From a virus (Duplodnaviria > Heunggongvirae > Uroviricota > Caudoviricetes): a DNA stretch of 15,692 nt. Positions 1-15,562 of this stretch are shown here, piece after piece. The stretch spans positions 1 through 15,692 of the IMG/VR virus record IMGVR_UViG_2778261417_000005; one strand, 5' to 3'. How positions within the stretch are numbered: the first letter of the stretch is position 1; each line of letters starts with the position of its first letter. The translations under genes were made by a program, and so were the position numbers. The notes below the pieces were generated by a model. It worked only from the letters and a program-made list of their open reading frames with translations, was not told the origin of the DNA and did no database searches.

Positions 1-77
1 AACTGATGGAGATGGAAGCCACGGGAGCACCTCAAAAACACCATCATACACTAAATCAGTAAGTTGGCACCATTACC
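1..77 (-). mobile_element. IS1-family insertion sequence, terminal 77 bp (IRL-type end plus first codons of insA); body lies beyond the window start
   Basis: Reverse complement of 1-77 is GGTAATGGTGCCAACTTACTGATTTAGTGTATGATGGTGTTTTTGAGGTGCTC..., matching the IS1 left inverted repeat and leader with a few substitutions. An insA-like start (GTG GCT TCC ATC TCC ATC AGT, V/M-A-S-I-S-I-S) runs leftward from position 22. Confidence 0.8.
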
Positions 78-378
78 TTATTTCTTCGCTTCCGGTAGTG
101 CCTATATCGTTGCTATGTTACCGGTATTTGCCATGCTGGCGAACGTCTCCGGCGCACCGTTAATGTTAACCGCGCTGGCACTGTTGTTCTCCAACTCCTA
201 TGGCGGCATGGTTACTCACTATGGCGGCGCGGCAGGTCCGGTCATCTTTGGCGTGGGTTATAACGATATTAAATCCTGGTGGTTGGTCGGTGCGGTACTG
301 ACGATATTAACCTTCCTGGTGCATATCACCCTCGGCGTGTGGTGGTGGAATATGCTGATCGGCTGGAACATGCTGTAA
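78..378 (+). pseudogene. ybhI: 3' fragment of a DASS-family (CitT-like) anion transporter gene, 5' part displaced by IS1
   Basis: Open frame to TAA at 376-378 encodes about 100 aa of hydrophobic helices (…SGSAYIVAMLPVFAMLANVSGAPLMLTALALLF…WWWNMLIGWNML). It has no credible start: the tracked TTG at 64 lies inside the IS1 inverted repeat. Position upstream of ybhJ matches K-12 gene order as recalled. Confidence 0.6.
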
Positions 379-560
379 ATATACTCGTCATACTTCAAGT
401 TGCATGTGCTGCGTTTGCGTTCGCTCACCCCAGTCACTTACTTATGTAAGCTCCTGGGGATTCACTCACTTGTCGCCTTCCTGCAACTCGAATTATTTAG
501 AGTATATCCATTTATTATCTTTCTGCGCACTTCACGGTGCGCAGATATCTGGAGCATTTG

Positions 561-2822
561 ATGATCAAGTTATCTGAAAAAGGCGTGTTTCTCGCCAGTA
601 ATAACGAAATAATTGCCGAAGAACATTTCACCGGCGAAATTAAAAAAGAAGAAGCCAAAAAAGGCACTATTGCCTGGTCTATTCTCTCTTCTCATAATAC
701 GTCCGGAAATATGGATAAACTTAAAATTAAGTTTGATTCATTAGCCTCTCACGATATTACCTTTGTTGGTATTGTACAGACCGCTAAAGCGTCCGGAATG
801 GAACGTTTCCCGCTGCCGTATGTGCTGACCAACTGCCATAACTCACTCTGCGCCGTCGGCGGCACCATTAACGGTGATGACCATGTTTTTGGTTTATCGG
901 CAGCTCAGCGTTATGGCGGTATTTTTGTGCCTCCGCATATTGCGGTCATCCATCAATATATGCGTGAGATGATGGCAGGCGGCGGCAAAATGATCCTCGG
1001 GTCAGACAGCCACACCCGTTACGGTGCATTAGGGACAATGGCAGTCGGTGAGGGCGGCGGTGAGTTGGTAAAACAGCTGCTTAATGACACCTGGGATATC
1101 GACTATCCGGGAGTTGTTGCGGTGCATCTGACCGGAAAACCAGCGCCGTATGTGGGGCCGCAGGATGTGGCGCTGGCTATCATCGGTGCCGTGTTCAAAA
1201 ACGGCTACGTCAAAAACAAAGTGATGGAATTCGTAGGTCCCGGTGTTGCTGCGCTCTCTACCGATTTCCGTAACAGCGTTGACGTTATGACCACTGAAAC
1301 GACCTGTTTAAGTTCTGTCTGGCAAACCGATGAAGAAGTCCATAACTGGCTGGCGCTGCACGGTCGCGGCCAGGATTACTGCCAGCTTAACCCTCAACCG
1401 ATGGCGTACTACGATGGCTGCATCAGCGTTGATTTAAGCGCCATCAAACCAATGATTGCGCTGCCGTTCCACCCGAGCAACGTGTATGAAATCGACACAC
1501 TGAACCAGAACCTGACCGACATTCTGCGTGAGATTGAAATTGAGTCCGAACGCGTGGCGCACGGTAAAGCCAAACTCTCGCTGCTGGATAAAGTGGAAAA
1601 TGGTCGCCTGAAAGTGCAGCAGGGGATTATCGCGGGCTGTTCTGGCGGTAACTACGAAAACGTCATCGCGGCGGCGAATGCACTGCGCGGTCAATCCTGT
1701 GGCAATGACACCTTCTCGCTGGCAGTTTACCCGTCATCACAGCCGGTGTTTATGGATCTCGCCAAAAAAGGTGTGGTAGCAGATTTGATTGGCGCAGGCG
1801 CAATCATCAGAACCGCGTTCTGCGGCCCATGCTTTGGCGCGGGCGATACGCCAATCAACAACGGATTAAGTATTCGCCACACCACGCGCAACTTCCCGAA
1901 CCGCGAAGGCTCTAAGCCAGCTAATGGGCAGATGTCAGCGGTGGCGTTGATGGACGCTCGTTCTATCGCTGCGACTGCGGCAAACGGTGGCTATTTAACC
2001 TCTGCCAGCGAACTTGATTGCTGGGACAACGTGCCGGAGTACGCCTTCGATGTAACGCCGTATAAAAACCGTGTTTATCAGGGCTTTGTGAAAGGGGCAA
2101 CTCAGCAACCGCTGATTTACGGACCGAACATTAAAGACTGGCCGGAATTGGGTGCGCTGACTGACAATATCGTCCTGAAAGTGTGCTCGAAGATCCTCGA
2201 CGAAGTGACCACCACCGACGAACTGATTCCTTCCGGTGAAACCTCTTCTTATCGTTCAAATCCGATTGGTCTGGCGGAGTTTACCCTGTCACGCCGCGAT
2301 CCCGGTTATGTTGGCAGAAGTAAAGCGACTGCTGAGCTGGAAAATCAGCGTCTGGCGGGGAATGTCAGCGAGCTGACAGAGGTGTTTGCGCGCATTAAGC
2401 AGATTGCTGGTCAGGAGCATATTGATCCGCTGCAAACTGAAATTGGCAGCATGGTATATGCGGTGAAACCAGGCGATGGTTCTGCGCGTGAACAGGCGGC
2501 GAGCTGCCAGCGTGTGATTGGCGGTCTGGCGAATATTGCCGAAGAGTACGCGACTAAACGCTACCGTTCTAACGTCATCAACTGGGGGATGTTACCGCTG
2601 CAGATGGCGGAAGTGCCAACCTTTGAAGTGGGGGATTACATTTACATCCCTGGCATTAAAGCGGCGCTGGATAATCCGGGTACGACGTTTAAAGGTTATG
2701 TGATCCATGAAGATGCGCCGGTAACGGAAATTACGCTCTATATGGAAAGTCTGACTGCTGAAGAGCGCGAGATTATCAAGGCGGGTAGTTTGATTAACTT
2801 CAATAAAAACCGTCAGATGTAA
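561..2822 (+). CDS. ybhJ: Aconitase-family protein (putative hydratase), 753 aa from the ATG at 561
   Basis: Long ORF (tracked from GTG 537). ATG at 561 has GGAG at 551-554, 6 nt upstream, giving MIKLSEKG… Translation carries aconitase-like Gly-rich and Cys-containing motifs ([26 protein letters not shown]). Confidence 0.9.
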
Positions 2823-2845
2823 AAAGCGCCATGTGAATGTAGGTC

Positions 2846-3040
<195 letters not shown>

Positions 3041-3055
3041 AATAGTTAATTGCTC

Positions 3056-4339
3056 TTACTTCTTCGCCTCTGCAACCACTTTACTACCCACGCCGCGGTT
3101 ATTGTATTCCCACATGCGGTTGTAGTTAGTGTCATTCAGATTGCGCTGTATTTCGTCGTTATCATCTACGCTGCCGGTATTACCCGCAAACGGACGATTA
3201 GAGATCACCGCATCGGCCCACGGTTTAGCCGTGTTAAAACCTTCGTTGATGGCGCTATCACGGATCACCACCTGACCGTTGGTATTGGCATCAACATCCA
3301 GCGAGCGGCCCAGTTGCGCCACACCATCACCGAAAGCATTGAAACGGCTGTTTACGGCGAGGAAACCGTAGTAAATGTTGGACAGCGTAGCCGGTGCAAA
3401 CACATACGCTTCTTGCTGAGTACGTGAGTTCACCACGCGGAATTCGGTGTTATCGAACACCACTGCGCCGCGACCAGAAACGATATCCACATCCCCTTCA
3501 ATGTAGCTGTTGGTCACCAGCGTACGCGGCTGACGATTCGTTTCCAGACGGTTCTGCACACCGCTGTTGGTGACAAAGAAGGTGTTCTGACGACCGAGAA
3601 TGTTAACGTTGTTAATCTGTACCTGGTCACCATCAGTACGCAGTGCCACCGCCGGATGGTTACCTGCATCTACGCTATCGCCCAGCGTGTTTTCGATGGT
3701 CAGATTTTGCAGTTGCAGGCCATTGTTTTGTGACCAGAAGACCGCAGAGCAGAGAACACCGATACTGTCGCTGCGTTTGCTCTGGCAGCTATCGTACATA
3801 TACCACGCTGGTTTACCTGGCATATATTTGCCGCGCGGGTTGACGTCGTGACGCCAGTCGGCAGGGCTCATGCCACCATCAAGGGAAAGCCCAATCTTCA
3901 CATCAATCGGTTTTTCACCTGTACCGTACAGAGTAATTCCACCCGGAGCGGCAGGGACATATACCGTTCCCTGATACTCACCAGGCATCACGGCAATATA
4001 CTGGCGCTTGTTGGTACGCTTGATAATTGCCGCATCTACCGCCGCCTGAATCGTGGTATGCGTTACACCTTGAGTGCCCGCCGGGCCGACAACAAAGTCA
4101 GGTTGCGCAGGCAGGGTAATCGGGGAAGGATTCCACGCTGCAGCACCTGGTGTCAGGGATGCAAAATAGTGTTGAGCATCGAAATTCTGCGCTTCTTTTG
4201 CCGACAGAATCGGGCGAGAAGAGGTACCAGGCGCGGTTTGATCAGAAGGACGTTGATCGGGCGGGGTTGAGCTACAGGCGGTCAGCGTCACGCCAAAAGC
4301 CAATGCCAGCGCCAGACGGGAAACTGAAAATGTGTTCAC
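3056..4339 (-). CDS. ybhC: Outer-membrane lipoprotein, pectinesterase-like family, 427 aa
   Basis: 427-aa ORF with lipoprotein signal MNTFSVSRLALALAFGVTLTAC (lipobox LTAC), GTG start at 4339. Sits immediately chromosome-side of the att core, as for K-12 ybhC. Confidence 0.9.
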   Translation of the reverse strand: MNTFSVSRLALALAFGVTLTACSSTPPDQRPSDQTAPGTSSRPILSAKEAQNFDAQHYFASLTPGAAAWNPSPITLPAQPDFVVGPAGTQGVTHTTIQAAVDAAIIKRTNKRQYIAVMPGEYQGTVYVPAAPGGITLYGTGEKPIDVKIGLSLDGGMSPADWRHDVNPRGKYMPGKPAWYMYDSCQSKRSDSIGVLCSAVFWSQNNGLQLQNLTIENTLGDSVDAGNHPAVALRTDGDQVQINNVNILGRQNTFFVTNSGVQNRLETNRQPRTLVTNSYIEGDVDIVSGRGAVVFDNTEFRVVNSRTQQEAYVFAPATLSNIYYGFLAVNSRFNAFGDGVAQLGRSLDVDANTNGQVVIRDSAINEGFNTAKPWADAVISNRPFAGNTGSVDDNDEIQRNLNDTNYNRMWEYNNRGVGSKVVAEAKK

Positions 4340-4385
4340 AGGTTGCTCCGGGCTATGAAATAGAAAAATGAATCCGTTGAAGCCT

Positions 4386-4473
4386 GCTTTTTTATACTAA
4401 GTTGGCATTATAAAAAAGCATTGCTTATCAATTTGTTGCAACGAACAGGTCACTATCAGTCAAAATAAAATCA
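4386..4473. other. Prophage attachment site attL: lambda 15-bp core plus P' arm
   Basis: Core GCTTTTTTATACTAA at 4386-4400, preceded by attB-type host arm (…TTGAAGCCTGC) and followed by GTTGGCATTATAAAAAAGCATTGCTTATCAATTTGTTGCAACGAACAGGTCACTATCAGTCAAAATAAAATCATTATTTG, recognised as the lambda P' arm. It abuts the int stop at 4474. Confidence 0.9.
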
Positions 4474-5544
4474 TTATTTGATTTCAATTTTGTCCCACTC
4501 CCTGCCTCTGTCATCACGATACTGTGATGCCATGGTGTCCGACTTATGCCCGAGAAGATGTTGAGCAAATTTATCGCTTATCTGCTTCTCATAGAGTCTT
4601 GCAGACAAACTGCGCAACTCGTGAAAGGTTGGCGGATCCCCTTCGAAGGAGAGACCTGATGCTTTTCGTGCGCGCATAAAATACCTTGATACTGTGCCGG
4701 ATGAAAGCGGTTCACGACGAGTAGATGCAATTATGGTTTCTCCGCCAAGAATCTTTTTGCATTTATCAAGTGTTTCCTTCATTGATATCCCGAGAGCATC
4801 AACATGCAATGTTGTTGGGATGGCAATTTTTACGCCTGTTTTGCTTTGCTCGACATAAAGATATCCATCTACGATATCAGACCACTTCATTTCGCATAAA
4901 TCACCAACTCGCTGCCCGGTAACAACAGCCAGTTCCATTGCAAGTCTAAGCCAACATGGTGATGATTCTGCTGCTTGATAAATTTTCAGGTATTCGTCAG
5001 CCGTAAGTCTTGATCTCCTTACCTCTGATTTTGCAGCGCGAGTGGCTGCGACCGGGTTTGTTGTTATATGGCCTTCAGCTATAGCCTCTCGGAATGCATC
5101 GCTCAGTGTTGATCTGATTAACTTGGCTGATGCCGCCTTGCCCTCGTCTATGTATCCATTGAGCATTGCCGCAATTTCTTTTGTGGTGATGTCTTCAAGT
5201 GGAGCATCAGGCAGACCCCTCCTTATTGCTTTAATTTTGCTCATGTAATTTATGAGTGTCTTCTGCTTGATTCCTCTGCTGGCCAGGATTTTTTCGTAGC
5301 GATCAAGCCATGAATGTAACGTAACGGAATTATCACTGTTGATTCTCGCTGTCAGAGGCTTGTGTTTGTGTCCTGAAAATAACTCAATGTTGGCCTGTAT
5401 AGCTTCAGTGATTGCGATTCGCCTGTCTCGGCCTAATCCAAACTCTTTACCCGTCCTTGGGTCCCTGTAGCAGTAATATCCATTGTTTCTTATATAAAGG
5501 TTAGGGGGTAAATCCCGGCGCTCATGACTTCGCCTTCTTCCCAT
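4474..5544 (-). CDS. int: Lambda-type tyrosine integrase, 356 aa
   Basis: 356-aa ORF starting MGRRRSHERRDLPPNLYIRNNGYYCYRDPRTGKEFGLGRD…, matching lambda Int in sequence and length as recalled, with a conserved C-terminal catalytic region (…HELRSLSARLY…LLGHKSDTMASQYRDD). Adjacent to attL. Confidence 0.95.
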   Translation of the reverse strand: MGRRRSHERRDLPPNLYIRNNGYYCYRDPRTGKEFGLGRDRRIAITEAIQANIELFSGHKHKPLTARINSDNSVTLHSWLDRYEKILASRGIKQKTLINYMSKIKAIRRGLPDAPLEDITTKEIAAMLNGYIDEGKAASAKLIRSTLSDAFREAIAEGHITTNPVAATRAAKSEVRRSRLTADEYLKIYQAAESSPCWLRLAMELAVVTGQRVGDLCEMKWSDIVDGYLYVEQSKTGVKIAIPTTLHVDALGISMKETLDKCKKILGGETIIASTRREPLSSGTVSRYFMRARKASGLSFEGDPPTFHELRSLSARLYEKQISDKFAQHLLGHKSDTMASQYRDDRGREWDKIEIK

Positions 5545-5740
5545 TTCTGATCCTCTTCAAAAGGCTACCTGTTACTGGTCGATTTAAGTCAACCTTTACC
5601 GCTGATTCGTGGAACAGATACTCTCTTCCATCCTTAACCGGAGGAGGGAATATCCTGCACTCGCGTACCCATCGACGAACTGTTTCAAGGCTTCTTGGGC
5701 GTCGCTGGCGTGCGTTCCACTCCTGAAGTGTCAAGTACAT
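5522..5740 (-). CDS. xis: Excisionase, 72 aa
   Basis: 72-aa ORF MYLTLQEWNARQRRPRSLETVRRWVRECRIFPPPVKDGREYLFHESAVKVDLNRP…, matching lambda Xis as recalled. Its 3' end overlaps the int start by 23 nt. Confidence 0.9.
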   Translation of the reverse strand: MYLTLQEWNARQRRPRSLETVRRWVRECRIFPPPVKDGREYLFHESAVKVDLNRPVTGSLLKRIRNGKKAKS

Positions 5741-5765
5741 CGCAAAGTCTCCGCAATTACACGCA

Positions 5766-5786
5766 AGAAAAAACCGCCATCAGGCG
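5766..5786 (-). terminator. Putative intrinsic terminator (minus strand) just upstream of xis
   Basis: GC-only 5-bp stem CCGCC (5773-5777) / GGCGG (5782-5786) with loop ATCA. On the minus strand it is followed by a six-U tract (plus-strand A-run 5766-5772). Short stem, so tentative. Confidence 0.4.
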
Positions 5787-5947
5787 GCTTGGTGTTCTTT
5801 CAGTTCTTCAATTCGAATATTGGTTACGTCTGCATGTGCTATCTGCGCCCACAGCATCCAGTGGTCATAGCAGTCGCTGATGTTCTCGGCTTCGATAACT
5901 CTGTTGAATGGTTCTCCATTCCATTCACCTGTGACTCGGAAGTGCAT
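5779..5947 (-). CDS. Small hypothetical phage protein, 55 aa
   Basis: Hand translation of the minus strand from ATG (plus 5945-5947) to TGA (plus 5779-5781): MHFRVTGEWNGEPFNRVIEAENISDCYDHWMLWAQIAHADVTNIRIEELKEHQAA. Not in the ORF track (under the length cutoff). Its stop lies inside the hairpin above. Confidence 0.45.
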
Positions 5948-6189
5948 TTATCATCTCCATAAAACAAAACCCGCCGTAGCGAGTTCAGATAAAAGAAATC
6001 CTCGTCAGTGCGAGGATGCTGTTCATTGCTGCTATACACTTTTTTGCTCTCAACGTAAGCGGTAGCCCATTCTGTTGGGTTGGTGCAGTTGCTTTTAGGA
6101 AATGCTATTTACCCCTTAAATGTCGGCTGAAAGAGCTAAAATCCATGCAAAAAATTTACGCAATTTTGTGTATTATTGTGCAGTAAGTA

Positions 6190-6792
6190 ATGAGCTATTT
6201 TCTGCGCAAAAAATGGATGGTAAATTTGTCCGGGTCAGGAAAAATTTTATGGGCGCTAAACATGAAAAAAGATTCGTATCCTTATTTGATTTGCATGACA
6301 GTTTCAGGGCTGATCTTTATTTTCCTTTTCTTCTGGTGGCGGGCAGATATCTACAGGGTCACGTTTCTTAATCAGAGTATATCCCACTATTACATTCTGT
6401 TTAGCATGGGAATAGCTTTTCTGTTATCTCTGTTTTGGGTTAAGAAGGGGATAGTAAAACAAAGCGGCTGGAAGAGTCTGTCAGCATACCTTAAGGTTTA
6501 TGCAGGGATGTGCATATTTGCTGGATTTTTTCTGATTATACCCCTTACGACACTAACTTATTTTTTGCCTGGAGAGACATCGTCTTATGTTGCACCGTAT
6601 CGGTATACTTCCGGTAGTTCAAAAAGTTGTTCTGGAGCTGAGGTGGATGACCCCGATCTACATGAGAATATTCGCATTTGCTATCCGTATGGCAATTATG
6701 AGTACGATAATATTATCTATGTTGAAAAGAAAATTAATATATTAGGTGCGGTAGTGACATATGCACAGACCGCGCGTGATGATACTGAATGA
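6190..6792 (+). CDS. Hypothetical integral membrane protein (3 predicted TM helices plus about 75-aa C-terminal domain), 200 aa; AT-rich accessory gene
   Basis: Only plus-strand ORF inside a minus-strand operon. Hydrophobic stretches YLICMTVSGLIFIFLFFWW, YYILFSMGIAFLLSLFWV and VYAGMCIFAGFFLIIPLTTLTYFL. Visibly AT-rich codon usage. Start uncertain (ATG 6190, 6217 or 6262; none has a strong Shine-Dalgarno). Confidence 0.6.
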   Translation: MSYFLRKKWMVNLSGSGKILWALNMKKDSYPYLICMTVSGLIFIFLFFWWRADIYRVTFLNQSISHYYILFSMGIAFLLSLFWVKKGIVKQSGWKSLSAYLKVYAGMCIFAGFFLIIPLTTLTYFLPGETSSYVAPYRYTSGSSKSCSGAEVDDPDLHENIRICYPYGNYEYDNIIYVEKKINILGAVVTYAQTARDDTE

Positions 6793-6826
6793 TATAGTAT
6801 ATAGCGGGCAAGTTTTAGTTAATTTA

Positions 6827-6850
6827 TCGAGGTAATATAATTTACCTCGA
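6827..6850 (+). terminator. Candidate terminator hairpin downstream of the membrane-protein gene
   Basis: Perfect 9-bp stem TCGAGGTAA (6827-6835) / TTACCTCGA (6842-6850), loop TATAAT. The downstream tract ACTCGTTTGTTCT is only moderately U-rich. Confidence 0.35.
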
Positions 6851-7002
6851 CTCGTTTGTTCTGGTATTAATATTTCGCTTTACGACCGATTTTTATCTGA
6901 TGATATCATGCGGTTTTCATATACTGACTTACTGTCTTTTCTCCGTTAGCGATTTTCTCCTGCTCAGCGATGATTTTATCTTTGGCTTCTAGTTAATTTC
7001 GC

Positions 7003-7224
7003 TCACTTCGAACCTCTCTGTTTACTGATAAGCTCCAGATCTTGCTGGCAACTGGCACAAGTCCGACAACCCTGAACGGCCAGTCGTCTTCGTTCATCTA
7101 TCGGATCGCCACACTCACAACAATGAGTGGCAGATATAGCCTGGTGGTTCAGGCGGCGCATTTTTATTGCTGTGTTGCGCTGTAATTCTTCAATTTCTGA
7201 TGCTGAATCAATTATGTCTGCCAT
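7003..7224 (-). CDS. DksA/TraR-family C4 zinc-finger protein (lambda Orf73-like), 73 aa
   Basis: 73 aa with paired Cys motifs HCCECGDPIDERRRLAVQGCRTCASC, the CxxC…CxxC layout and CE-CG-PI-RR signature of TraR/DksA-type RNA-polymerase-binding proteins. Confidence 0.8.
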   Translation of the reverse strand: MADIIDSASEIEELQRNTAIKMRRLNHQAISATHCCECGDPIDERRRLAVQGCRTCASCQQDLELISKQRGSK

Positions 7225-7285
7225 CTTTCATTAATCCCTGAATTGTTGGTTAATACGCTTGAGGGTGAATGCGAATAATAAAAAA

Positions 7286-7300
7286 GGAGCCTGTAGCTCC
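7286..7300 (-). terminator. Candidate intrinsic terminator (minus strand)
   Basis: Stem GGAGC (7286-7290) / GCTCC (7296-7300), loop CTGTA. On the minus strand it is followed by U-rich tract TTTTTTATTATT (plus A-run 7274-7285). Confidence 0.4.
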
Positions 7301-7322
7301 CTGATGATTTTGCTTTTCATGT

Positions 7323-7604
7323 TCACCGTTCCTTAAAGACGCCGTTCAACATGCCGATCGCCAGGCTTAAATGAGTCGGTGTGAATCCCATCAGCGTTAC
7401 CGTTTCGCGGTGCTTCTTTAGTACGCTACGGCAAATGTCATCGACGTTTTTATCCGGAAACTGCTGTCTGGCTTTTTTGATTTCAGAATTAGCCTGACGG
7501 GCAATGCTGCGAAGGGCGTTTTCTTGCTGAGGTGTCATTGAACAAGCCCCATGTCGGCAAGCATAAGCACACAGAATATGAAGCCCGCTGCCAGAAAAAT
7601 GCAT
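7323..7604 (-). CDS. Hypothetical small phage protein with N-terminal Cys/His cluster, 93 aa (start uncertain; internal Met at 7538 would give 71 aa)
   Basis: ORF MHFSGSGLHILCAYACRHGACSMTPQQENALRSIARQANSEIKK… with C-x3-C-x-H-x2-C near the N-terminus. Its length equals lambda ea8.5 (93 aa, from memory) but identity is not verified. No clear Shine-Dalgarno at either start. Confidence 0.5.
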   Translation of the reverse strand: MHFSGSGLHILCAYACRHGACSMTPQQENALRSIARQANSEIKKARQQFPDKNVDDICRSVLKKHRETVTLMGFTPTHLSLAIGMLNGVFKER

Positions 7605-7614
7605 TCAGTGGTTG

Positions 7615-7806
7615 TCATACCTGGTCTCTCTCATCTGCTTCTGCTTTCGCCACCATCATTTCCAGCTTTTGTGAAAGGGATGCGGCTAACGTATGAAATT
7701 CTTCGTCTGTTTCTACTGGTATTGGCACAAACCTGACTCCAATTTGAGCGAGGCTATGTGCCATCTCGATACTCGTTCTTAACTCAACGGGAGATGCTTT
7801 GTGCAT
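7615..7806 (-). CDS. Small delta-region protein, 63 aa (lambda orf63-like by size and position)
   Basis: 63-aa [66 protein letters not shown]. It overlaps the next gene by 28 nt, the arrangement recalled for lambda orf63/orf60a. Confidence 0.55.
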   Translation of the reverse strand: MHKASPVELRTSIEMAHSLAQIGVRFVPIPVETDEEFHTLAASLSQKLEMMVAKAEADERDQV

Positions 7807-7961
7807 ACAGCTCCCCGTTTATTATTTATCTCCTCAGCCAGCCGCTGTGCTTTCAGGGGATTTCTGATAACAGAAAGGCCGGGAAATACCCAGCCTCGCT
7901 TTGTAATGGAGTAGACGAAAGTGATCGCGCCTACCCGGATATTATCGTGAGGATGCGTCAT
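7779..7961 (-). CDS. Small delta-region protein, 60 aa (lambda orf60a-like)
   Basis: ATG at 7959-7961 overlaps the exo stop (7958-7960) in ATGA fashion and gives a 60-aa product [24 protein letters not shown]… The track's 7967 start adds two codons. Confidence 0.5.
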
Positions 7962-8638
7962 CGCCATTGCTCCCCAAATACAAAACCAATTTCAGCCAGT
8001 GCCTCGTCCATTTTTTCGATGAACTCCGGCACCATCTCGTCAAAACTCGCCATGTAATTTTCATCCCGCTCAACCACGACATAATGCAGGCCTTCACGCT
8101 TCATTCGTGGGTCATAGTTGGCAAAGTACCAGGCATCTTTTCGCGTCACCCACATGCTGTACTGCACCTGGGCCATGTAAGCCGACTTTATGGCCTCGAA
8201 ACCACCGAGCCGGAATTTCATGAAATCCCGGGAGGTAAACGGGCATTTCAGTTCAAGGCCGTTGCCGTCACTGCATAAACCATCGGGAGAGCAGGCGGTG
8301 CGCATACTTTCGTCGCGATAGATGATCGGGGATTCAGTAACATTCACGCCGGAAGTAAACTCAAACAGGGCTCTGGCGTCGTTCTCGTACTGTTTTCCCC
8401 AGGCCAGCGCCTTAGCATTAACTTCCGGAGCCACACCGGTGCAAACCTCAGCCAGCAGGGTGTGGAAGTAGGACATTTTCATGTCAGGCCACTTCTTTCC
8501 TGAGCGGGGCTTTGCTATCACGTTGTGAACTTCTGAAGCGGTGATGACGCCGAGCCGTAATTTGTGCCATGCATCATCCCCCTGTTCGACAGCTCTCACG
8601 TCGATCCCGGTACGCTGCAGGATAATGTCCGGTGTCAT
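7958..8638 (-). CDS. exo: Lambda-type 5'-3' exonuclease (Red alpha), 226 aa
   Basis: 226-aa [68 protein letters not shown]…, matching lambda Exo as recalled. 4-nt overlap with bet upstream. Confidence 0.95.
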
Positions 8639-9420
8639 GCTGCCACCTTCTGCTCAGTGGCTTTCTGTTTCAGGAATCCAAGAGCTTTCACTGCTTCGGC
8701 CTGTGTCAGTTCTGACGATGCGCGAATGTCGCGGCGAAATATCTGGGAACAGAGCGGCAATAAGTCGTCATCCCATGTTTTATCCAGGGCGATCAGCAGA
8801 GTGTTAATCTCCTGCATGGTTTCATCGTTAACCGGAGTGATGTCGCGTTCCGGCTGACGTTCTGCAGTGTATGCGGTATTTTCGACAATGCGCTCGGCTT
8901 CATCCTTGTCATAGATACCAGCAAATCCGAAGGCCAGACGGGCACACTGAATCATGGCTTTATGACGTAACATCCGTTTGGGATGCGACTGCCACGGTCC
9001 GGTGATTTCTCTGCCTTCGCGGGTTTTGAATGGTTCGCGGCGGCATTCATCCATCCACTCGGTAACGCAGATCGGATGATTGCGGTCCTTGCGGTAAATC
9101 CGGCATGTGCAGGATTCATTGTCCTGCTCAAAGTCCATACCATCAAACTGCTGGTTTTCATTGATGATGCGGGACCAGCCATCAACGCCCACCACCGGAA
9201 CGATGCCGTTCTGCTTATCAGGGAAGGCGTAAATTTCTTTCGTCCACGGATTAAGGCCGTACTGGTTGGCGACGATCAGCAATGCGATGAACTGCGCATC
9301 GCTGGCATCGCCTTTAAATGCCGTCTGGCGAAGAGTGGTGATCAGTTCCTGTGGGTCGACAGAATCCATGCCGACACGTTCAGCCAGCTTCCCAGCCAGC
9401 GTTGCGAGTGCTGTACTCAT
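8635..9420 (-). CDS. bet: Single-strand annealing protein Beta (Red beta), 261 aa
   Basis: 261-aa [69 protein letters not shown]…, matching lambda Bet as recalled. Confidence 0.95.
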
Positions 9421-9425
9421 CCGTT

Positions 9426-9722
9426 TTATACCTCTGAATCAATATCAACCTGATGGTGAGCAATGGTTTCAACCATGTACCGGATGTGTTCTGCCATGCG
9501 CTCCTGAAACTCAACATCGTCATCAAATGCACGGGTAATGGCTTTTTTGCTGGCCCCGCAGCGTTGTAAATGATCGATGCAGAGCGATTCAAACAAATGC
9601 TGGGGCAGGCCTTTGTCCATGTCGTCTGCCAGTTCTGCCTCTTTCTCTTCACGGGCGATCTGCTGGTAGTGACGCGCCCAGCTCTGAGCCTCAAGACGAT
9701 CCTGAATGTAATAAGCGTTCAT
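9426..9722 (-). CDS. gam: Gam (RecBCD inhibitor), 98-aa short form
   Basis: [98 protein letters not shown], near-identical to lambda Gam with a few substitutions relative to my recollection. An in-frame TAA lies 19 codons upstream of the ATG. Confidence 0.9.
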
Positions 9723-9798
9723 GGCTGAACTCCTGAAAATGGCTGTGAAAATATCGCCCGCGAAATGCCAGGCTGATTAGGAAAACAAGAAAGGGGGG

Positions 9799-10089
9799 TT
9801 AGTGATTCAGGCCGTTACCGCGTCCGTCGAGAAAAACTTCCACGAGCAAATCACGGGTATAAGTGCGCTCGATGCCGCGATGCAGATAAAGCCGTCCGCG
9901 TAAATTAGCTGATGCAGTCCAGGTACCATCTTTGTGTTTGACCAGCATTCCTGGCATGACCGCACCTCGATTAACGGTCTGCGTTCCGTAATGTTGATGA
10001 ACCATAAAAACTCCTGCCCGTAAGCTGGGCTGCTGAACATATAAAGACTTCTGCGCGTATTCAGGCGGTGGATGGCCGCCGGTTGTCAT
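9799..10089 (-). CDS. Hypothetical small protein at the kil/cIII position (up to 96 aa; true start may be an internal Met)
   Basis: ORF with GAGG 10 nt upstream of the ATG at 10089. Its 3' end overlaps the region upstream of gam, as kil does in lambda. No recognisable N-type Arg-rich motif. Confidence 0.45.
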   Translation of the reverse strand: MTTGGHPPPEYAQKSLYVQQPSLRAGVFMVHQHYGTQTVNRGAVMPGMLVKHKDGTWTASANLRGRLYLHRGIERTYTRDLLVEVFLDGRGNGLNH

Positions 10090-10282
10090 AACTAAGCCGC
10101 CTCGTTGAAGCGACTAAGGTATGAAATGTTGAGTTAATTTCAGCTGGTCACACCGACGTTCACGCGTCCGTTTCACCCCTCGCACTCCCCGAAGCCTGCT
10201 GAAATTCAAACTGCGGATCTAAGCGGTCATCGCAACGGTGAATCAGGTGGTTGCCGTATCGTTGTGTTGTTGCGATATGGTG

Positions 10283-10326
10283 ATAATAGCTATTGCTATT
10301 GGTGATATCAATACTTATTGCTATTA
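10283..10326 (-). promoter_or_regulatory. pL-like early leftward promoter with operator-like repeats (OL)
   Basis: On the minus strand: -35 TTGATA (plus 10306-10311), 17-nt spacer, -10 TATTAT (plus 10283-10288). Plus-strand TATTGCTATT occurs at 10291-10300 (in the spacer) and 10316-10325 (upstream of -35). Palindrome AATAGCTATT at 10285-10294. Confidence 0.55.
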
Positions 10327-10447
10327 GTTGATGTGTTTTGATATTAAATGTTTGATAGCAAAAAGAATTAATTTTGTGACTTGCATCGCATAGCGATAAC
10401 TGAAGTGAGGTGTGGTGGTTTTTTGGACGGTTTGTGTGATGAGGGGA

Positions 10448-10480
10448 GGCAAAAGAAAACCCGGCACTGGGGCCGGGTTT
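10448..10480 (-). terminator. Intrinsic terminator ending the repressor-side accessory operon (tIMM-like)
   Basis: Perfect 9-bp stem AAACCCGGC (10457-10465) / GCCGGGTTT (10472-10480), 6-nt loop. On the minus strand it is followed by UCUUUUGCC. Lies 76 bp downstream of the stop at 10556. Confidence 0.6.
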
Positions 10481-10555
10481 AGATGGATAAGAAAGGGTAA
10501 TAGGGAATGAAAAATCGCTTTGCGTAATGCAAGGTGGCGAGCAGTTTCTTAAGCA

Positions 10556-10996
10556 CTAAAGAAAAAAGTACATTGATAGCTTATAAAGACCTGTTCCTGC
10601 AGCGATGATTGCTGGAACACCAAGCAATACCGCAAGCTTTGCGTCTGAAATCTTTCTATCGACAGCATCGATGGAGGGTTTTTTGGCTAGTGAATCTTTT
10701 ATTGAATCGAGTCGCTCCAGAACAGCGATCATGTTTCTGTCGATAGATTTGACATCTGTCTTAAGCTCATCAACGTCACGTCGGATATAGGACACATCAG
10801 ACTCAAGCTTTGCAACTTTCGATTCAAGCACATTATTACTCCCAGAGCCACCGCTACCACTTGATTGTAGCATAGGTACATTACCGCCAGACATACCAGC
10901 TGATTGAGAAAATGCTGCAGTGTGCAAAGATGATGATCTTGCCGCTTGTTCAAGCTTTTCAGTTAGGTTTGGAGCTTCGTAATAACCGTGTTTCAT
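10556..10996 (-). CDS. Hypothetical tail-anchored membrane protein with coiled-coil region, 146 aa
   Basis: N-terminal Ser/Gly-rich segment (SSGSGGSGSNN), heptad-like region (VAKLESDVSYIRRDVDELKTDVKSIDRNMIAVLERLDSIKDSLAKK), and a single C-terminal hydrophobic helix (LAVLLGVPAIIAAGTGLYKLSMYFFL). Start is 8 nt after the upstream gene's stop (translational coupling). AT-rich. Confidence 0.7.
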   Translation of the reverse strand: MKHGYYEAPNLTEKLEQAARSSSLHTAAFSQSAGMSGGNVPMLQSSGSGGSGSNNVLESKVAKLESDVSYIRRDVDELKTDVKSIDRNMIAVLERLDSIKDSLAKKPSIDAVDRKISDAKLAVLLGVPAIIAAGTGLYKLSMYFFL

Positions 10997-11004
10997 TGTT
11001 AATA

Positions 11005-11274
11005 TTATGACTTATTGGTTTTAGCTCTATCATGCTGATCGCGAATAAAGTCAGCGAGTTTAAGCATTAAATCTTCCGTCATGCGAATTGTTGCAATGTT
11101 GTACTTTACGTTTTCAGTGTCATTACTACCATCAGCGCCCCATTCTGTAACATGCTGAAAGAAAGATATGGAGCCTAAGCGATCGTCATCTTCCCCAAAA
11201 GATGAATATCCAAATGCATCAGCATATGCATCTACACAGTTATTTGATTTTTTTATAAGTTTTTTATCACTCAT
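11005..11274 (-). CDS. Hypothetical small acidic soluble protein, 89 aa
   Basis: ORF MSDKKLIKKSNNCVDAYADAFGYSSFGEDDDRLGSISFFQHVTEWGADGSNDTENVKYNIATIRMTEDLMLKLADFIRDQHDRAKTNKS. Shine-Dalgarno GGAAAGG about 5 nt upstream of the ATG. Starts 80 bp downstream of the repressor stop, same strand. Confidence 0.7.
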   Translation of the reverse strand: MSDKKLIKKSNNCVDAYADAFGYSSFGEDDDRLGSISFFQHVTEWGADGSNDTENVKYNIATIRMTEDLMLKLADFIRDQHDRAKTNKS

Positions 11275-11353
11275 TTTTGCCTTTCCCGTAATGTTATTTT
11301 TATAAAGAATTCTTTCAGCGCATTACCCAAAAGCCTCATCAGCACGCAGCTGA

Positions 11354-12046
11354 TTATCCGTGTTTCCTATACGTCTGCGGCATACTGCCAATAACCTTCC
11401 CGAAAATGAACACCCGGTTCATCTCGTCTTTCTCGATCGGGTCCCACGGTGAGTAGCTCTTGTTATCAGAGATAACCAGTAGCTTATCTTTCATCATTTG
11501 CAGGCGCTTTACATGGGCTGTGTCGTCGTACAGAAACGCATAGATACCATCACCGTCGAAAGATTTAACCGTGATATCAACGAACAGCAGATCACCTGGT
11601 TCGATCGTTCCTGACATGCTGTCACCGCGCACGTTAATGATGCGGATATTTTCCGCCTTCCTGCCATCGAACATGTGACGAGCATCGTCAAACGAGTACT
11701 CAACCGAGCGTAGAACTTCCACAAACTCACGGTTGATGACACCCGGTCCGGCACTGACTTCTATATCAAGAACGTCAATCTTGAAGTATTTTGAATGGCT
11801 GACAGCAGGCTTCCCTGATTGTTGACCGTCATTTCTCATCGGGCCTATGCCTGATGAGAGCCATTCTGTTCGAACACCCAATGCATTAGCTATTTCAACA
11901 ATTTTTGTTGAGCCGCGCGCGTTGCCGCTTGTCAGTCTCCAGATTGTGGGTTGAGCTACGCCAGACGCCTTTGCAAGAGCGCCTTGAGACATTCCAGATT
12001 GTTCCATCGCTAGGTTTAAGCGATCAGCAAGAGTTTCTTTTTTCAT
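11354..12046 (-). CDS. cI-type prophage repressor (N-terminal HTH plus C-terminal LexA-like S24 peptidase domain), 230 aa from the Met at 12046
   Basis: HTH segment MSQGALAKASGVAQPTIWRL. Candidate autocleavage Ala-Gly (…EVSAGPGV…). Peptidase motif VRGDSMSGTIEPGDLLFVD with downstream Lys (VKRL). The tracked start at 12082 lies upstream of the predicted pRM -10, so 12046 is preferred. Not lambda cI by sequence. Confidence 0.85.
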   Translation of the reverse strand: MKKETLADRLNLAMEQSGMSQGALAKASGVAQPTIWRLTSGNARGSTKIVEIANALGVRTEWLSSGIGPMRNDGQQSGKPAVSHSKYFKIDVLDIEVSAGPGVINREFVEVLRSVEYSFDDARHMFDGRKAENIRIINVRGDSMSGTIEPGDLLFVDITVKSFDGDGIYAFLYDDTAHVKRLQMMKDKLLVISDNKSYSPWDPIEKDEMNRVFIFGKVIGSMPQTYRKHG

Positions 12047-12156
12047 AAGTTTTAATTTATACGCTTGCGTATTGATGGTCAAAACACGTTTTGCTATTGC
12101 TTGGGTTAATACGCATTGCTATTATTCATTCATTGCAATACCAATAGGAATTGATA
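12047..12156. promoter_or_regulatory. Divergent immunity control region (OR, pRM-like leftward, pR-like rightward)
   Basis: pR-like: -35 TTGCTT (12097-12102), 17-nt spacer, -10 TATTAT (12120-12125). pRM-like on the minus strand: -35 TTGACC (plus 12077-12082), -10 TATAAA (plus 12056-12061), implying an almost leaderless repressor mRNA. Operator-like TTGCTATTGC (12091-12100), ATTGCTATT (12115-12123), palindrome ATTGCAAT (12132-12139). Confidence 0.55.
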
Positions 12157-12384
12157 ATGACAAATCAAACCATTCAACTCGCAATCAGTATTACAGGTAG
12201 TCAAAAACGACTGGCAGATCTATGCGGTGTAGCCCAACCCACAGTTTGGCGTTGGCTACACGGTGGCGGAATTGATGCCCGCTATGTAATGAAAATTGTC
12301 TCAGCCACTGGTGGAAAGATTAAACCAGCAGATATTCGTCCCGACCTCGCACCATTGTTTAACGCGAGTAATTCTGCCGCCTAA
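12157..12384 (+). CDS. Cro/YdaS-like HTH regulator, 75 aa
   Basis: ATG at 12157 with AGGAA 6 nt upstream. HTH segment GSQKRLADLCGVAQPTVWRWL. First rightward gene opposite the repressor. Confidence 0.8.
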   Translation: MTNQTIQLAISITGSQKRLADLCGVAQPTVWRWLHGGGIDARYVMKIVSATGGKIKPADIRPDLAPLFNASNSAA

Positions 12385-12408
12385 ACTGCGGCGTTAACTG
12401 ATAAGGCA

Positions 12409-12954
12409 ATGACTATGCAACCACTTACATACCAACAGACTAGCGGATTTAGCCCGACTGCGGTGATAAATCGTTCTCAAACAAAACAGGCGCCAGGCCA
12501 CGAAAAAATCCGTGATGCCGTTCGCGCCTGGTCGGCTGCAGATAATCAGGATGTTGTTGCCGCACTCATTGTGAATGAGTATCGGGAGCAGGGCGGCGGC
12601 ACCATCGATTTCCCTGATGATGTCAGCCGTGCACGCCAGAAGCTGTTCCGCTTCCTCGATAACAAATTCGATTCTGAAAAATACCGAAATAACGTGCGTG
12701 AACTGACCCCGGCAATTCTGGCGGTACTACCGCTGGAATATCGCGGCCACCTGGTTGAGCAGGATAGCTACATGGCTCGGCTGGCTGAAATGGAAAAGGA
12801 ACTCAGTGAGGCAAAACAGGCTGTCATTCTCAACGCACCACGCCACCAGAAACTGAAGGAGATGAGTGAAGGCATTGTGTCGATGTTTCGTGTGGACCCG
12901 GATTTGGCTGGTCCACTGATGGCGATGGTCACCACCATGCTGGGGGCAATATGA
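12409..12954 (+). CDS. Hypothetical regulatory protein at the cII position (possibly a YdaT-like CII analogue), 181 aa
   Basis: ORF begins 24 bp after the cro-like stop and ends overlapping the next ORF. Family assignment is from recollection of Rac/CP-933-type regions where a cro-like gene is followed by ydaT; not verified. Confidence 0.5.
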   Translation: MTMQPLTYQQTSGFSPTAVINRSQTKQAPGHEKIRDAVRAWSAADNQDVVAALIVNEYREQGGGTIDFPDDVSRARQKLFRFLDNKFDSEKYRNNVRELTPAILAVLPLEYRGHLVEQDSYMARLAEMEKELSEAKQAVILNAPRHQKLKEMSEGIVSMFRVDPDLAGPLMAMVTTMLGAI

Positions 12955-13040
12955 CAGGTTCGGAAATGGCGAAAGCCGGTCTGCGCGAACAGAACCGACT
13001 TTCAGGTGCAAATCGTAACACACTCATTGCGGGAGGAATT

Positions 13041-13970
13041 ATGGCAAACACTGCTGAGATATTCAATTTTCCAGTGCCGGATGTGGCACAAAAGGAGCGG
13101 CGCGTGGCAGATCTCGACGATGGTTATACGCGCATTGCAAATGAGTTGCTGGAAGCTGTGATGCTGGCCGGATTAACACAGCACCAGCTTCTGGTCTTCC
13201 TGGCTGTCATGCGCAAAACATATGGCTTTAATAAAAGACTGGATTGGGTGAGCAACGAGCAACTTTCCGAATTGACCGGGATATTGCCGAACAAGTGTTC
13301 TGCTGCAAAAAGCGTTCTGGTAAAGCGTGGGATTCTTATTCAGAGCGGGCGGAATATCGGCATTAATAATGTGGTCAGTGAATGGTCAACATTACCCGAA
13401 TCAGGTAAGAAAAATAAAGTTTACCTGAAAGAGGTAAATTTACCTGAATCAGGTAAGAAAAGTTTACCCAAATCAGGTAAAGGCGTTTACCCGAATCAGG
13501 TAAACACAAAAGACAAACTAACAAAAGACAATATAAAACCTTTTTCGTCCGAGAATTCTGACGAATCCTCTGACCAGCCAGAAAACGATCTTCCTGTGAT
13601 GAAACCGGATGCTGCAATTCAGAGCGGCAGCAAGTGGGGGACAGCAGAAGACCTGACCGCCGCAGAGTGGATGTTTGACATGGTGAAGACCATCGCGCCA
13701 TCAGCCAGAAAACCGAATTTTGCAGGGTGGGCTAACGATATCCGCCTGATGCGTGAACGTGATGGACGTAACCACCGCGACATGTGCGTGCTGTTCCGCT
13801 GGGCATGCCAGGACAACTTCTGGTCCGGTAACGTGCTGAGTCCGGCTAAACTCCGCGACAAGTGGACCCAGCTCGAAATCAACCGTAACAAGCAACAGGC
13901 TGGCGTGACAGCCAGAAAACCAAAACTCGACCTGACAAACACTGACTGGATTTACGGGGTGGATTTATGA
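13041..13970 (+). CDS. O: Replication initiator, O-like (iteron-binding), 309 aa from the ATG at 13041
   Basis: MANTAEIFNFPVPDVAQKERRVADLDDGYTRIANELLEAVMLAGLTQHQLLVFLAVMRKTYGFNK… resembles the lambda O N-terminus but diverges. GGGAGG at 13031-13036. Iterons lie inside the gene. The tracked start at 12951 adds 30 codons of doubtful coding. Confidence 0.85.
   Translation: MANTAEIFNFPVPDVAQKERRVADLDDGYTRIANELLEAVMLAGLTQHQLLVFLAVMRKTYGFNKRLDWVSNEQLSELTGILPNKCSAAKSVLVKRGILIQSGRNIGINNVVSEWSTLPESGKKNKVYLKEVNLPESGKKSLPKSGKGVYPNQVNTKDKLTKDNIKPFSSENSDESSDQPENDLPVMKPDAAIQSGSKWGTAEDLTAAEWMFDMVKTIAPSARKPNFAGWANDIRLMRERDGRNHRDMCVLFRWACQDNFWSGNVLSPAKLRDKWTQLEINRNKQQAGVTARKPKLDLTNTDWIYGVDL
13392..13503. repeat. 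Replication origin iterons (five 17-bp repeats) inside the O-like gene, followed by an AT-rich tract
   Basis: TTACCCGAATCAGGTAA (13392), TTACCTGAAAGAGGTAA (13421), TTACCTGAATCAGGTAA (13440), TTACCCAAATCAGGTAA (13464), TTACCCGAATCAGGTAA (13487). Each is an internal inverted repeat TTACC…GGTAA. AT-rich AAACACAAAAGACAAACTAACAAAAGACAATATAAAACC follows. Confidence 0.8.
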
Positions 13971-14668
13971 AAAACATCGCCGCACAGATGGTTAACTTTG
14001 ACCGTGAGCAGATGCGTCGGATCGCCAACAACATGCCGGAACAGTACGACGAAAAGCCGCAGGTACAACAGGTAGCGCAGATCATCAACGGTGTGTTCAG
14101 CCAGTTACTGGCAACTTTCCCGGCGAGCCTGGCTAACCGTGACCAGAATGAACTGAACGAAATCCGCCGCCAGTGGGTTCTGGCTTTCCGGGAAAACGGG
14201 ATCACCACAATGGAACAGGTTAACGCAGGAATGCGCGTAGCCCGTCGGCAGAATCGACCATTCCTGCCATCACCCGGGCAGTTTGTCGCCTGGTGCCGGG
14301 AAGAAGCATCCGTTAACGCCGGGCTGCCAAACGTCAGCGAGCTGGTTGATATGGTTTACGAGTATTGCCGGAAGCGTGGCCTGTATCCGGATGCAGAGTC
14401 TTATCCGTGGAAATCGAACGCGCATTACTGGCTGGTTACCAACCTGTACCAGAACATGCGGGCCAATGCGCTTACTGATGCGGAATTACGGCGCAAGGCT
14501 GCCGATGAACTGTCCTGTATGACCGCGCGAATTAACCGTGGTGAGGCGATACCTGAACCAGTAAAACAGCTTCCTGTCATGGGCGGTAGACCTCTAAATC
14601 GTGCACAGGCTCTGGCGAAGATCGCAGAAATCAAAGCTAAGTTTGGGCTGAAAGGAGCAAGTGTATGA
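13967..14668 (+). CDS. P: Replication protein P (DnaB helicase loader), 233 aa
   Basis: MKNIAAQMVNFDREQMRRIANNMPEQYDEKPQVQQVAQIINGVFSQLLATFPASLANRDQNE…, near-identical to lambda P as recalled and the same length. ATGA overlap with the O stop. Confidence 0.95.
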   Translation: MKNIAAQMVNFDREQMRRIANNMPEQYDEKPQVQQVAQIINGVFSQLLATFPASLANRDQNELNEIRRQWVLAFRENGITTMEQVNAGMRVARRQNRPFLPSPGQFVAWCREEASVNAGLPNVSELVDMVYEYCRKRGLYPDAESYPWKSNAHYWLVTNLYQNMRANALTDAELRRKAADELSCMTARINRGEAIPEPVKQLPVMGGRPLNRAQALAKIAEIKAKFGLKGASV

Positions 14669-14838
14669 CGGGCAAAGAGGCAATTATTTATTACCTGGGG
14701 ACGCATAAGAGTTTCTGTGCGCAGGACGTTGCTGCGGCAACAGGTGTGACAGTAACCTGCATAAATCAGGCAGCAGCTAAAATGGCGCGTGCAGGAATCC
14801 TGGTCATTGATGGTAAGGTCTGGCGAACGTTTGTTTAA
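14665..14838 (+). CDS. Ren-like ORF, apparently C-terminally truncated (57 aa)
   Basis: ATG overlaps the P stop. AAAGGAG lies 7 nt upstream. Product MTGKEAIIYYLGTHKSFCAQDVAAATGVTVTCINQAAAKMARAGILVIDGKVWRTFV resembles the N-terminus of lambda Ren (about 96 aa, from memory). The frame ends where AT-rich foreign sequence begins. Confidence 0.6.
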   Translation: MTGKEAIIYYLGTHKSFCAQDVAAATGVTVTCINQAAAKMARAGILVIDGKVWRTFV

Positions 14839-14984
14839 CGGTTAGCTACTCAGGATGATAGGGCGCGGCAAGTGAGTATGAAGCGGATTTTCAGGAATGC
14901 CATCAGAGTTTGGAAATAAAGTGGGTTTTCTAGTGGCAAGAGACTTGATAATATTTAGTTCTTTGAAGCCAAGGAGATAGGGTT

Positions 14985-15479: not shown

Positions 15480-15496
15480 CAAAAAAATTTCATATG

Positions 15497-15520: not shown

Positions 15521-15562
15521 ATTTCAGTAGCCAATAATGCATTCAAAATCTCTTACTTGAGA

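Follow-up and report, generated by a model that had tools for sequence, protein, structure and literature searches.

A plus-strand membrane-protein gene in the leftward block of a lambdoid prophage lies on a cassette shared with P2-like phages and might serve in superinfection exclusion

The questions raised by this locus are why a plus-strand gene lies inside the leftward block of a lambdoid prophage, where the gene came from, and what its product might do. The locus is part of a 15,692-bp stretch of viral DNA (IMG/VR record IMGVR_UViG_2778261417_000005, positions 1 to 15,692; here called the window), in which positions 5948-7002 (1,055 bp) separate orf55 (5780-5947) from a TraR/DksA-type zinc-finger gene (7003-7224). 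The original prediction, which was made from the sequence alone, described the plus-strand 200-amino acid (aa) open reading frame (ORF) at 6190-6792 as a reverse-oriented, compositionally deviant, self-contained membrane-protein moron that takes the place of the ea genes of lambda. Our analysis bore out this description, apart from the start of the gene, and located the same cassette in the gpQ-gpA hotspot of P2-like phages. Specifically, the ORF was present and was set inside the leftward int-xis-orf55...TraR-orf63-orf60a-exo-bet-gam block, at a position that in lambda is occupied by the minus-strand genes ea8.5, ea22, and orf61, between orf55 and orf63. The gene is of an ordinary kind, a moron or hotspot cargo gene, and in phage 434 it already carries the annotation of a hypothetical membrane protein.

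The cassette spans 6039-6882 on the plus strand and shares homology with the cos-proximal hotspot that lies between gpQ and gpA in P2-like prophages. In a blastn comparison, window positions 6125-6882 matched positions 5864-6619 of an E. coli P2-like locus (L018) at 76% identity, and in a local alignment the match reached as far back as about 6039, with a gap of about 100 bp in between. Upstream of the ATG, the shared sequence covered about 137 nt by blastn and as much as about 220 nt; past the stop codon, it covered about 90 nt. The left boundary coincided with the end of similarity to other lambdoid phages (about 6043), and similarity to the lambdoid backbone resumed at about 6990. The predicted AT-rich island was also evident, as GC content was 0.382 in 6044-6990 versus 0.467 in the prophage part of the window, and a check of codon composition agreed with this (third-position GC of 0.39 in the ORF versus 0.59-0.62 in exo and bet). 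Thus, three properties of a moron were found at this locus: the base composition deviates from that of the surrounding prophage, the insertion point is filled differently in related phages (by ea8.5, ea22, and orf61 in lambda), and a terminator with a 9-bp stem and a T-containing tail lies downstream of the gene. The orf55 and TraR flanks were found in thousands of E. coli genomes with different inserts, such as ASCH-domain and Ea22-like genes.

The hairpins that were predicted to insulate the gene required a more divided judgment. The downstream hairpin is terminator-like, as described below. The two tandem terminator-like hairpins found upstream in a terminator scan (5967-5986 and 5998-6017) lie on the minus strand and correspond to t-L4 of the leftward pL operon, so they are not insulators of this gene; the t-L4 annotation in GenBank record M60848 (positions 2292-2322), a phage 434 fragment, maps to window positions 5991-6021. 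Because window positions 5948-6043 are kept at 88-91% identity in many lambdoid and Stx phages, these hairpins are part of the lambdoid backbone and not of the cassette. A second ORF bears on the claim that the gene is the only plus-strand gene in the leftward block. The phage 434 and mEp332 records annotate a 56-aa plus-strand ORF at 6016-6186, which the 434 record calls a putative membrane protein. We rejected this ORF as a second gene, and it is probably spurious: its span includes part of the t-L4 hairpin and runs over the mosaic junction (about 6039-6044), and its only match in P2-like loci is partial and weak.

Among sequenced phages, the 5948-7002 interval was 99.9%, 99.0%, and 98.9% identical to those of mEp332, 2B8, and 434, respectively. 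CPT_434_36 of phage 434 (OL657226) and XSB40999.1 of mEp332 (PV340541) are essentially the same gene at the same locus. The gene is labeled "putative membrane protein" in the 434 and 2B8 records and the same wording appears as a note in the mEp332 record; M60848 already contained the first 22 codons of the gene, as "ORF-22+". The lambdoid copies are nearly clonal, with 22 alleles in 65 loci and 12 synonymous plus 15 nonsynonymous variant codons. In IMG/VR, 64 lambdoid loci were 97-100% identical to the window gene, and 16 P2-like loci from at least two portal lineages were 45-80% identical. Because the lambdoid copies are nearly clonal, the P2-borne copies are diverse, and the window retains P2-hotspot flanks, the cassette seems to have been captured once, and recently, by a lambdoid phage, with a P2-like hotspot as the apparent source.

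We next consider whether the ORF is a real gene and where it starts. Pairwise comparisons with three P2-borne homologues yielded ratios of nonsynonymous to synonymous substitution (dN/dS) of 0.09-0.16 at dS values of 1.1-2.3. We found 74 homologues, every one of them in Enterobacteriaceae, and of the 66 lambdoid-type loci that were examined, 65 had an intact ORF; the copy in L097 (about 3207-3729) was frameshifted. On this comparative evidence, we regard the ORF as a real gene. The original prediction took 6190 as the start of a 200-aa product and left three candidate starts open, and public records disagree as well: the 434 record starts at TTG 6226 (188 aa) and the mEp332 record at ATG 6190 (200 aa), with no function assigned in either.

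The comparative data placed the start at the third candidate, ATG 6262 (M25 of the 200-aa ORF), which would yield a 176-aa product. This assignment is supported by four observations. First, homologues with 42-78% identity are 169-180 aa long and all begin at the residue that matches M25. Second, the upstream frame closes within 1-18 codons in every non-lambdoid homologue. Third, frame-changing variants occur in the supposed N-terminal extension: one lambdoid locus has a 1-nt deletion there, and in variant P0021 (223 aa, the same length as P0023, P0027, and P0028) the frame that opens at 6120 passes into the main frame just before Trp9. Read from the two frames, the switch in P0021 appears to be a 1-nt change in the A-run at 6208-6213, which would close the ATG-6190 frame and leave M25 intact. 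Fourth, the conserved -10 element of the predicted promoter is overlapped by ATG 6217 and lies downstream of ATG 6190. Thus, the apparent 24-codon extension (6190-6261) is probably noncoding and contains the promoter and the 5' untranslated region (UTR). No Shine-Dalgarno sequence had been recognized at any of the candidate starts, a view that we revise: a weak, G-rich Shine-Dalgarno-like sequence, GGGCG (6251-6255), read directly from the sequence, lies six nucleotides before ATG 6262, and GGAG or GGGG is found at a similar position upstream of the ATG in homologues. Separately, at two IMG/VR loci, unrelated sequence replaces everything upstream of position -9 relative to the ATG, possibly due to insertion-sequence insertions, and one genome, H37 (NZ_CP158441), carries an IS903B element within the region equivalent to 5780-7224.

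The phage-borne copies share a regulatory layout that consists of an A-tract, two to four TTGTGCA repeats at an exact 10-bp spacing, an extended -10 element about 40 nt downstream of the repeats, and a 5' UTR of about 30 nt. In the window, an A6 tract and three 10-bp-phased repeats form a candidate cis-regulatory array at 6149-6182, in which one copy is perfect (TTGTGCA, 6176-6182) and two are decayed (TTACGCA, 6156-6162, and TTGTGTA, 6166-6172). The predicted promoter (6198-6226) has a weak -35 element TTTTCT at 6198-6203, a 17-bp spacer, a TG at 6218-6219, and a -10 element TAAATT at 6221-6226, and the predicted transcription start is at about 6233. The extended -10 is found at the same distance from the ATG as TGgTAAATT in lambdoid, TGaTAAATT in Salmonella, and TGgTAAGTT in Cedecea copies, and it is also present in E. 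coli P2-like copies. Because this element is conserved across phage types, the gene may have its own promoter. Downstream, an intrinsic-terminator-like hairpin at 6827-6850 (plus strand, with a tail to 6860) has a 9-bp stem and a 6-nt loop, followed by CTCGTTTGTT with five T residues in the tail, in line with the original prediction; the RNA fold of 6793-6875 had an energy of -18.7 kcal/mol and a z-score of -2.5.

In a pattern search, TTGTGC-N4-TTGTGC was found in 16 of 116 loci and was always located about 80-105 nt upstream of the ATG of the gene. TTGTGCA arrays occur in lambdoid and several P2-like copies, for instance, at 5895-5920 in L005, 7895-7920 in L105 and L114, and 5895-5910 in L018; the array was not present at the chromosomal homologues. 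The spacing of the repeats resembles that of a response-regulator-type binding array. Two other identities for the repeats were considered. The 434 record marks the equivalent of the array as a CII-binding site (TTGY-N6-TTGY), and TTGT-N6-TTGT does occur at 6166-6179. In a CII-activated promoter, TTGC-N6-TTGC would straddle the -35. We rejected a CII-dependent promoter because the conserved -10 lies about 41 nt downstream instead of the expected distance of about 12-13 bp and because the repeats are also found in P2-like phages, which are not known to have a CII. P2 packaging sites near cos were disfavored as well. In the Salmonella copies, the repeats stay beside the gene despite two genes that separate the portal gene and cos from it, which argues that the repeats belong to the cassette and are not a packaging signal. 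The loci that were checked contained no P2-type cos sequence, and the old promoter region of P2 itself is unrelated to the TTGTGCA array. That region of phage P2 (L116, 4445-4490, minus strand) has three (A)ATGCA repeats of its own just upstream of the annotated old-tin transcription starts and beside cos. The sequence AATGCAAC is the CytR octamer in reverse complement, and the three repeats likewise bear no sequence relationship to TTGTGCA.

As in the original prediction, the protein has three hydrophobic segments and a C-terminal domain that includes RICYPYGNYEYDN; the domain is about 70 aa long, against roughly 75 aa in the prediction. The coding sequence of the 176-aa inner-membrane protein (6262-6792, plus strand) was delimited by the homologue alignment, the conserved start, and dN/dS, and residues are numbered here on the 176-aa form. 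Hydropathy placed transmembrane (TM) helices at aa 8-26 (6283-6339), 42-60 (6385-6441), and 80-102 (6499-6567). An AlphaFold2 model built from a 17-sequence alignment had three helices and a five-stranded beta domain, with a mean predicted local distance difference test score (pLDDT) of 84.8; the C-terminal domain modeled alone scored 86.7, and the predicted beta-barrel domain covers aa 103-170 (6568-6771). The second loop contains five Lys/Arg and no acidic residues and the C-terminal domain is net acidic; therefore, the predicted topology is N-in, C-out, with the C-terminal domain in the periplasm.

Conservation is concentrated on the predicted periplasmic side. Invariant positions make up 21 of 68 in the C-terminal domain and 4 of 15 in the first loop, and there are none in TM2 or in the second loop; the cytoplasmic loop is short and variable and contains insertions and deletions. 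Both cysteines, Cys123 (6628-6630) in the motif SCSGA and Cys140 (6679-6681) in the motif ICYP, are invariant in the homologue alignment, and the pair is also kept in the most distant relatives. A Cys123-Cys140 disulfide probably staples the periplasmic barrel.

Carriage of this locus is common. At least 80% of the 5780-7224 region was found in 824 of 5,426 complete E. coli genomes (about 15%). The P2-like copies are in prophages of E. coli, Salmonella, and Klebsiella, where the gene is always located between the portal gene gpQ and gpA and is oriented as gpQ, which is the position and orientation of old/tin in P2; closer relatives, with 78-80% identity, are among those at this locus. In three Klebsiella P2-like loci (L012-L014, 2281-5623, minus strand), a 790-aa AAA_16 protein and a 279-aa partner are encoded in the same hotspot as the homologue, and the two may form a defense system. 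One further occurrence is on a 3.6-kb contig (L026, JARKOR010000073.1) of a 'Candidatus Nanosynbacter' metagenome-assembled genome, which carries the E. coli lambdoid segment at 97-99% identity; this segment is almost certainly a contamination of that genome bin.

Searches for families and folds returned little beyond the family itself. In PHROGs, the only match was phrog_1416, a family with no assigned function that covers aa 113-200 of the ORF, probably owing to mis-started 90-aa annotations. A sequence-profile search of the PDB returned nothing below E = 0.33, a structural search with the full-length model returned only nonspecific helical matches, and a Foldseek search of BFVD returned nothing below E = 0.01. 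A profile search of 1.84 billion representative proteins yielded 61 hits, all of which but one were family members or fragments; the exception, a 3,074-aa repeat protein, was a spurious hit caused by its Cys-containing repeats, and we rejected it as a relative. These results indicate that the family is small, uncharacterized, and, among the searches whose hits carried organism names, apparently confined to Enterobacterales. Two leads to known families were dropped. The MliC/PliC lysozyme inhibitors, whose motif SxSGAxY resembles SCSGAxV, were suggested by the SCSGA motif, and neither a match to the Pfam family nor an MliC-like eight-stranded barrel was found. A short NfeD, with TM helices and a C-terminal OB-fold, was rejected because there was no Pfam match and the only hit, an NfeD-like protein in BFVD, had E = 0.41 and a TM-score of 0.27.

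The location of the P2-borne copies provides a clue to function. Experiments by Rousset et al. (2022, PMC9122126) established the gpQ-gpA region of P2-like phages as a hotspot that is stocked with anti-phage systems. Table S5B of that study lists a "System #4" with no Pfam domain, "3 TM," and 470 occurrences (PMC9122126). Over 168 aa, the System #4 representative and the window protein shared 52% identity (E = 5e-57). Relatives of the window gene are the fourth most common item in this hotspot; the System #4 sequence is not in Tables S2A and S2B, which list the tested systems (PMC9122126). The P2 record annotates old/tin as lysogenic-conversion exclusion genes, with the mRNA start about 150 nt from cos. 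A 2026 study of P2/P4 hotspots predicted many genes of unknown function to be defensive and did not mention membrane proteins. The 434 genome announcement does not discuss the gene, and neither the single paper that mentions mEp332 nor broader literature searches provided functional data on it.

A working model can be assembled from these features. A portable single-gene cassette from the cos-proximal hotspot of P2-like phages would have entered the interval between orf55 and the TraR-like gene, in the orientation opposite to that of the pL operon, together with its own repeat array, extended -10 promoter, 176-aa ORF, and terminator. With pL repressed in the lysogen, the gene could be expressed at that stage, and convergent pL transcription could damp it in lytic growth. 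The product would be anchored by three helices with its N-terminus in the cytoplasm, so that the barrel of about 70 aa and the conserved first loop project into the periplasm. From the periplasmic side of the inner membrane, the protein could then, for example, hinder incoming phages in delivering their genomes. The old/tin-like placement and the autonomy of the single gene in every context suggest exclusion at or before genome entry. The reading that we favor, tentatively and at somewhat less than an even chance, is that the protein is a lysogen-expressed superinfection-exclusion or defense factor that acts at the periplasmic face of the inner membrane. The original prediction of a superinfection-exclusion or abortive-infection (Abi)-type membrane protein is plausible in this light, and the conservation pattern favors a periplasm-facing, exclusion-type role over an Abi effector.

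Several observations weigh against exclusion or defense. The full protein, the C-terminal domains, and the homologues had no significant match in Pfam, NCBIfam, or PADLOC, and the window protein and two homologues had no match to the defense hidden Markov models of PADLOC-DB v2 at E up to 1. There was no homology to SieA of phage P22: a BLASTP comparison yielded E = 12, and the FxRYPxEAxxFNK motif is missing from the window protein. A simple promoter consensus scan did not call the 6198-6226 site, and its -35 element is poor. The hotspot also carries nondefense cargo, such as partition systems in about one-quarter of P2-like phages and, in some, a cdt toxin, and only three of eight additional P2 systems that were tested provided defense (PMC9122126); locus L018 likewise has a partition system in its hotspot. 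In addition, E. mori and five further Enterobacter species representatives share one chromosomal locus for the gene, beside GGDEF and AI-2E transporter genes. These orthologues are 36-44% identical, with no phage markers within 8 kb, and they suggest a function that is not tied to phages. Chromosomal singletons in Klebsiella, Cedecea, Citrobacter, and Pseudescherichia point the same way. The syntenic Enterobacter orthologues show that phage cargo does not account for the whole family.

The same observations make a lysogenic-conversion or envelope-physiology factor, unrelated to defense, the most serious rival, one that we consider less likely than exclusion and nevertheless well worth holding in view. 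Through its periplasmic domain, the protein might, for example, engage a component of the envelope or a membrane protein of the host and thereby change stress tolerance, permeability, or colonization, and phages would carry the gene as a benefit to the host. Vertical maintenance at one syntenic locus in Enterobacter, the scattered chromosomal singletons, the virulence and maintenance cargo of the P2 hotspot, and the failure to match a defense family would all fit such a role. However, the phage-borne copies occupy the old/tin position, where defense genes are enriched, and no enzymatic or transport signature was found in the Pfam, NCBIfam, or PDB-profile searches. Known exclusion proteins, too, have chromosomal homologues; HK97 gp15, for example, reportedly has the chromosomal homologue YebO.

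The protein might instead be an orphan immunity protein, as it is small, spans the inner membrane several times, and has a conserved periplasmic domain that is probably disulfide-bonded, and as its gene stands alone on mobile elements and at variable chromosomal spots. Such a protein would sequester a periplasm- or membrane-acting toxin (a bacteriocin or colicin, a type VI secretion system effector, or a contact-dependent inhibition toxin) at the periplasmic face of the inner membrane. We regard this as improbable, given that no cognate toxin gene was nearby in any context examined and that no Pfam immunity family was matched even at E up to 1-10. Least probable by our assessment is an Abi-type effector or toxin that depolarizes or permeabilizes the membrane upon an infection trigger: transmembrane proteins are common effectors of known Abi systems (PMC9122126) and the hotspot location would suit one, but the gene stands alone with no sensor partner in any context, its conserved part is predicted to be periplasmic and its cytoplasmic loop is short and variable, a poor match to the sensing of cytoplasmic phage cues, and its own putative, apparently unregulated promoter and its stable carriage in 15% of E. 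coli genomes speak against such a role.

If the gene is indeed a phage-exclusion factor, it would be a very common, previously unrecognized determinant of phage resistance in E. coli and Salmonella, it would be relevant to host-range prediction in phage therapy, and it would provide a clean example of a regulatory-plus-coding cassette that moves between unrelated temperate phage families. Of note here are the corrected start codon, the complete cassette common to P2-like and lambdoid phages with its conserved phased repeat array, and the very high prevalence. A bolder and rather doubtful extension is that the family forms an unrecognized class of single-protein defense, in which a disulfide-stapled, OB-like periplasmic barrel on a three-helix anchor blocks the genome entry of heterologous phages. 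In this extension, the cassette would shuttle between the defense hotspot of P2-like myoviruses and the xis-exo region of lambdoid siphoviruses, and the TTGTGCA array would be bound by a host regulator (e.g., of the OmpR or PhoB type) that tunes expression to the state of the envelope.

The remainder of the window is that of a lambdoid prophage at a chromosomal junction. The window starts in an E. coli chromosomal flank with an aconitase-family ORF (537-2822) and a pectinesterase-like lipoprotein ORF (3056-4339), which we take to be ybhJ and ybhC. The lambda attachment core, GCTTTTTTATACTAA, is at 4386-4400, and the prophage part starts with int (4474-5544) and xis (5522-5740). After the TraR-like gene, the order is orf63-like, orf60a-like, exo, bet, gam, a Kil-like ORF, the immunity region, and the replication genes. 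Two further sites in the window drew our attention. Downstream of the cI-like repressor gene, in the position of lambda rexAB, are two minus-strand ORFs (10556-11274) that encode 89 aa (phrog_4231) and 146 aa (phrog_3556; apparently a coiled-coil protein with a hydrophobic C-terminus). Both phrogs lack an assigned function, and the ORFs are candidate exclusion genes that the lysogen would express as part of the pRM operon. Beyond the replication genes, where the sequence is AT-rich, a plus-strand 164-aa ORF (14985-15479) has a signal-peptide-like N-terminus, MRKFILAFVISASFTANA, and matches phrog_1848, which has no assigned function; it may be another secreted-protein moron.

Comparison with known exclusion systems shows where the window protein stands among them. 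SieA of P22 is a prophage-expressed inner-membrane protein of 162-164 aa with three predicted TM helices, and it is sufficient on its own to block DNA delivery across the periplasm and inner membrane (PMC10883804). The window protein, with 176 aa and three predicted TM helices, is like SieA in architecture only. The conserved motif of SieA is predicted to be cytoplasmic, whereas the conserved part of the window protein is predicted to be periplasmic. SieA genes are located between genes 16 and 9 of P22-like phages, and SieA acts on P22-like ejection proteins. HK97 gp15 was reportedly described by Cumby et al. in 2012 as the product of a lambdoid moron with its own promoter and terminator, a small inner-membrane prophage protein that blocks DNA entry. 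Compared by description only, gp15 is much smaller than the window protein, is not known to have a beta-barrel periplasmic domain, and is encoded among the tail genes.

The old/tin genes of P2 have the same locus and orientation as the P2-borne homologues, and they are transcribed in the lysogen, away from cos and from a promoter beside it. Their products are unrelated to the window protein. The soluble ATPase-nuclease Old and the soluble protein Tin both act in the cytoplasm. A homologous counterpart is System #4. The two differ in location: System #4 belongs to the gpQ-gpA region of P2-like phages, and the window copy to the interval between orf55 and the TraR-like gene of a lambdoid prophage. 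In the other respects compared they agree: both have three TM helices, no Pfam domain, and the SCSGA...ICYP cysteine motifs, and both are encoded by a stand-alone gene.

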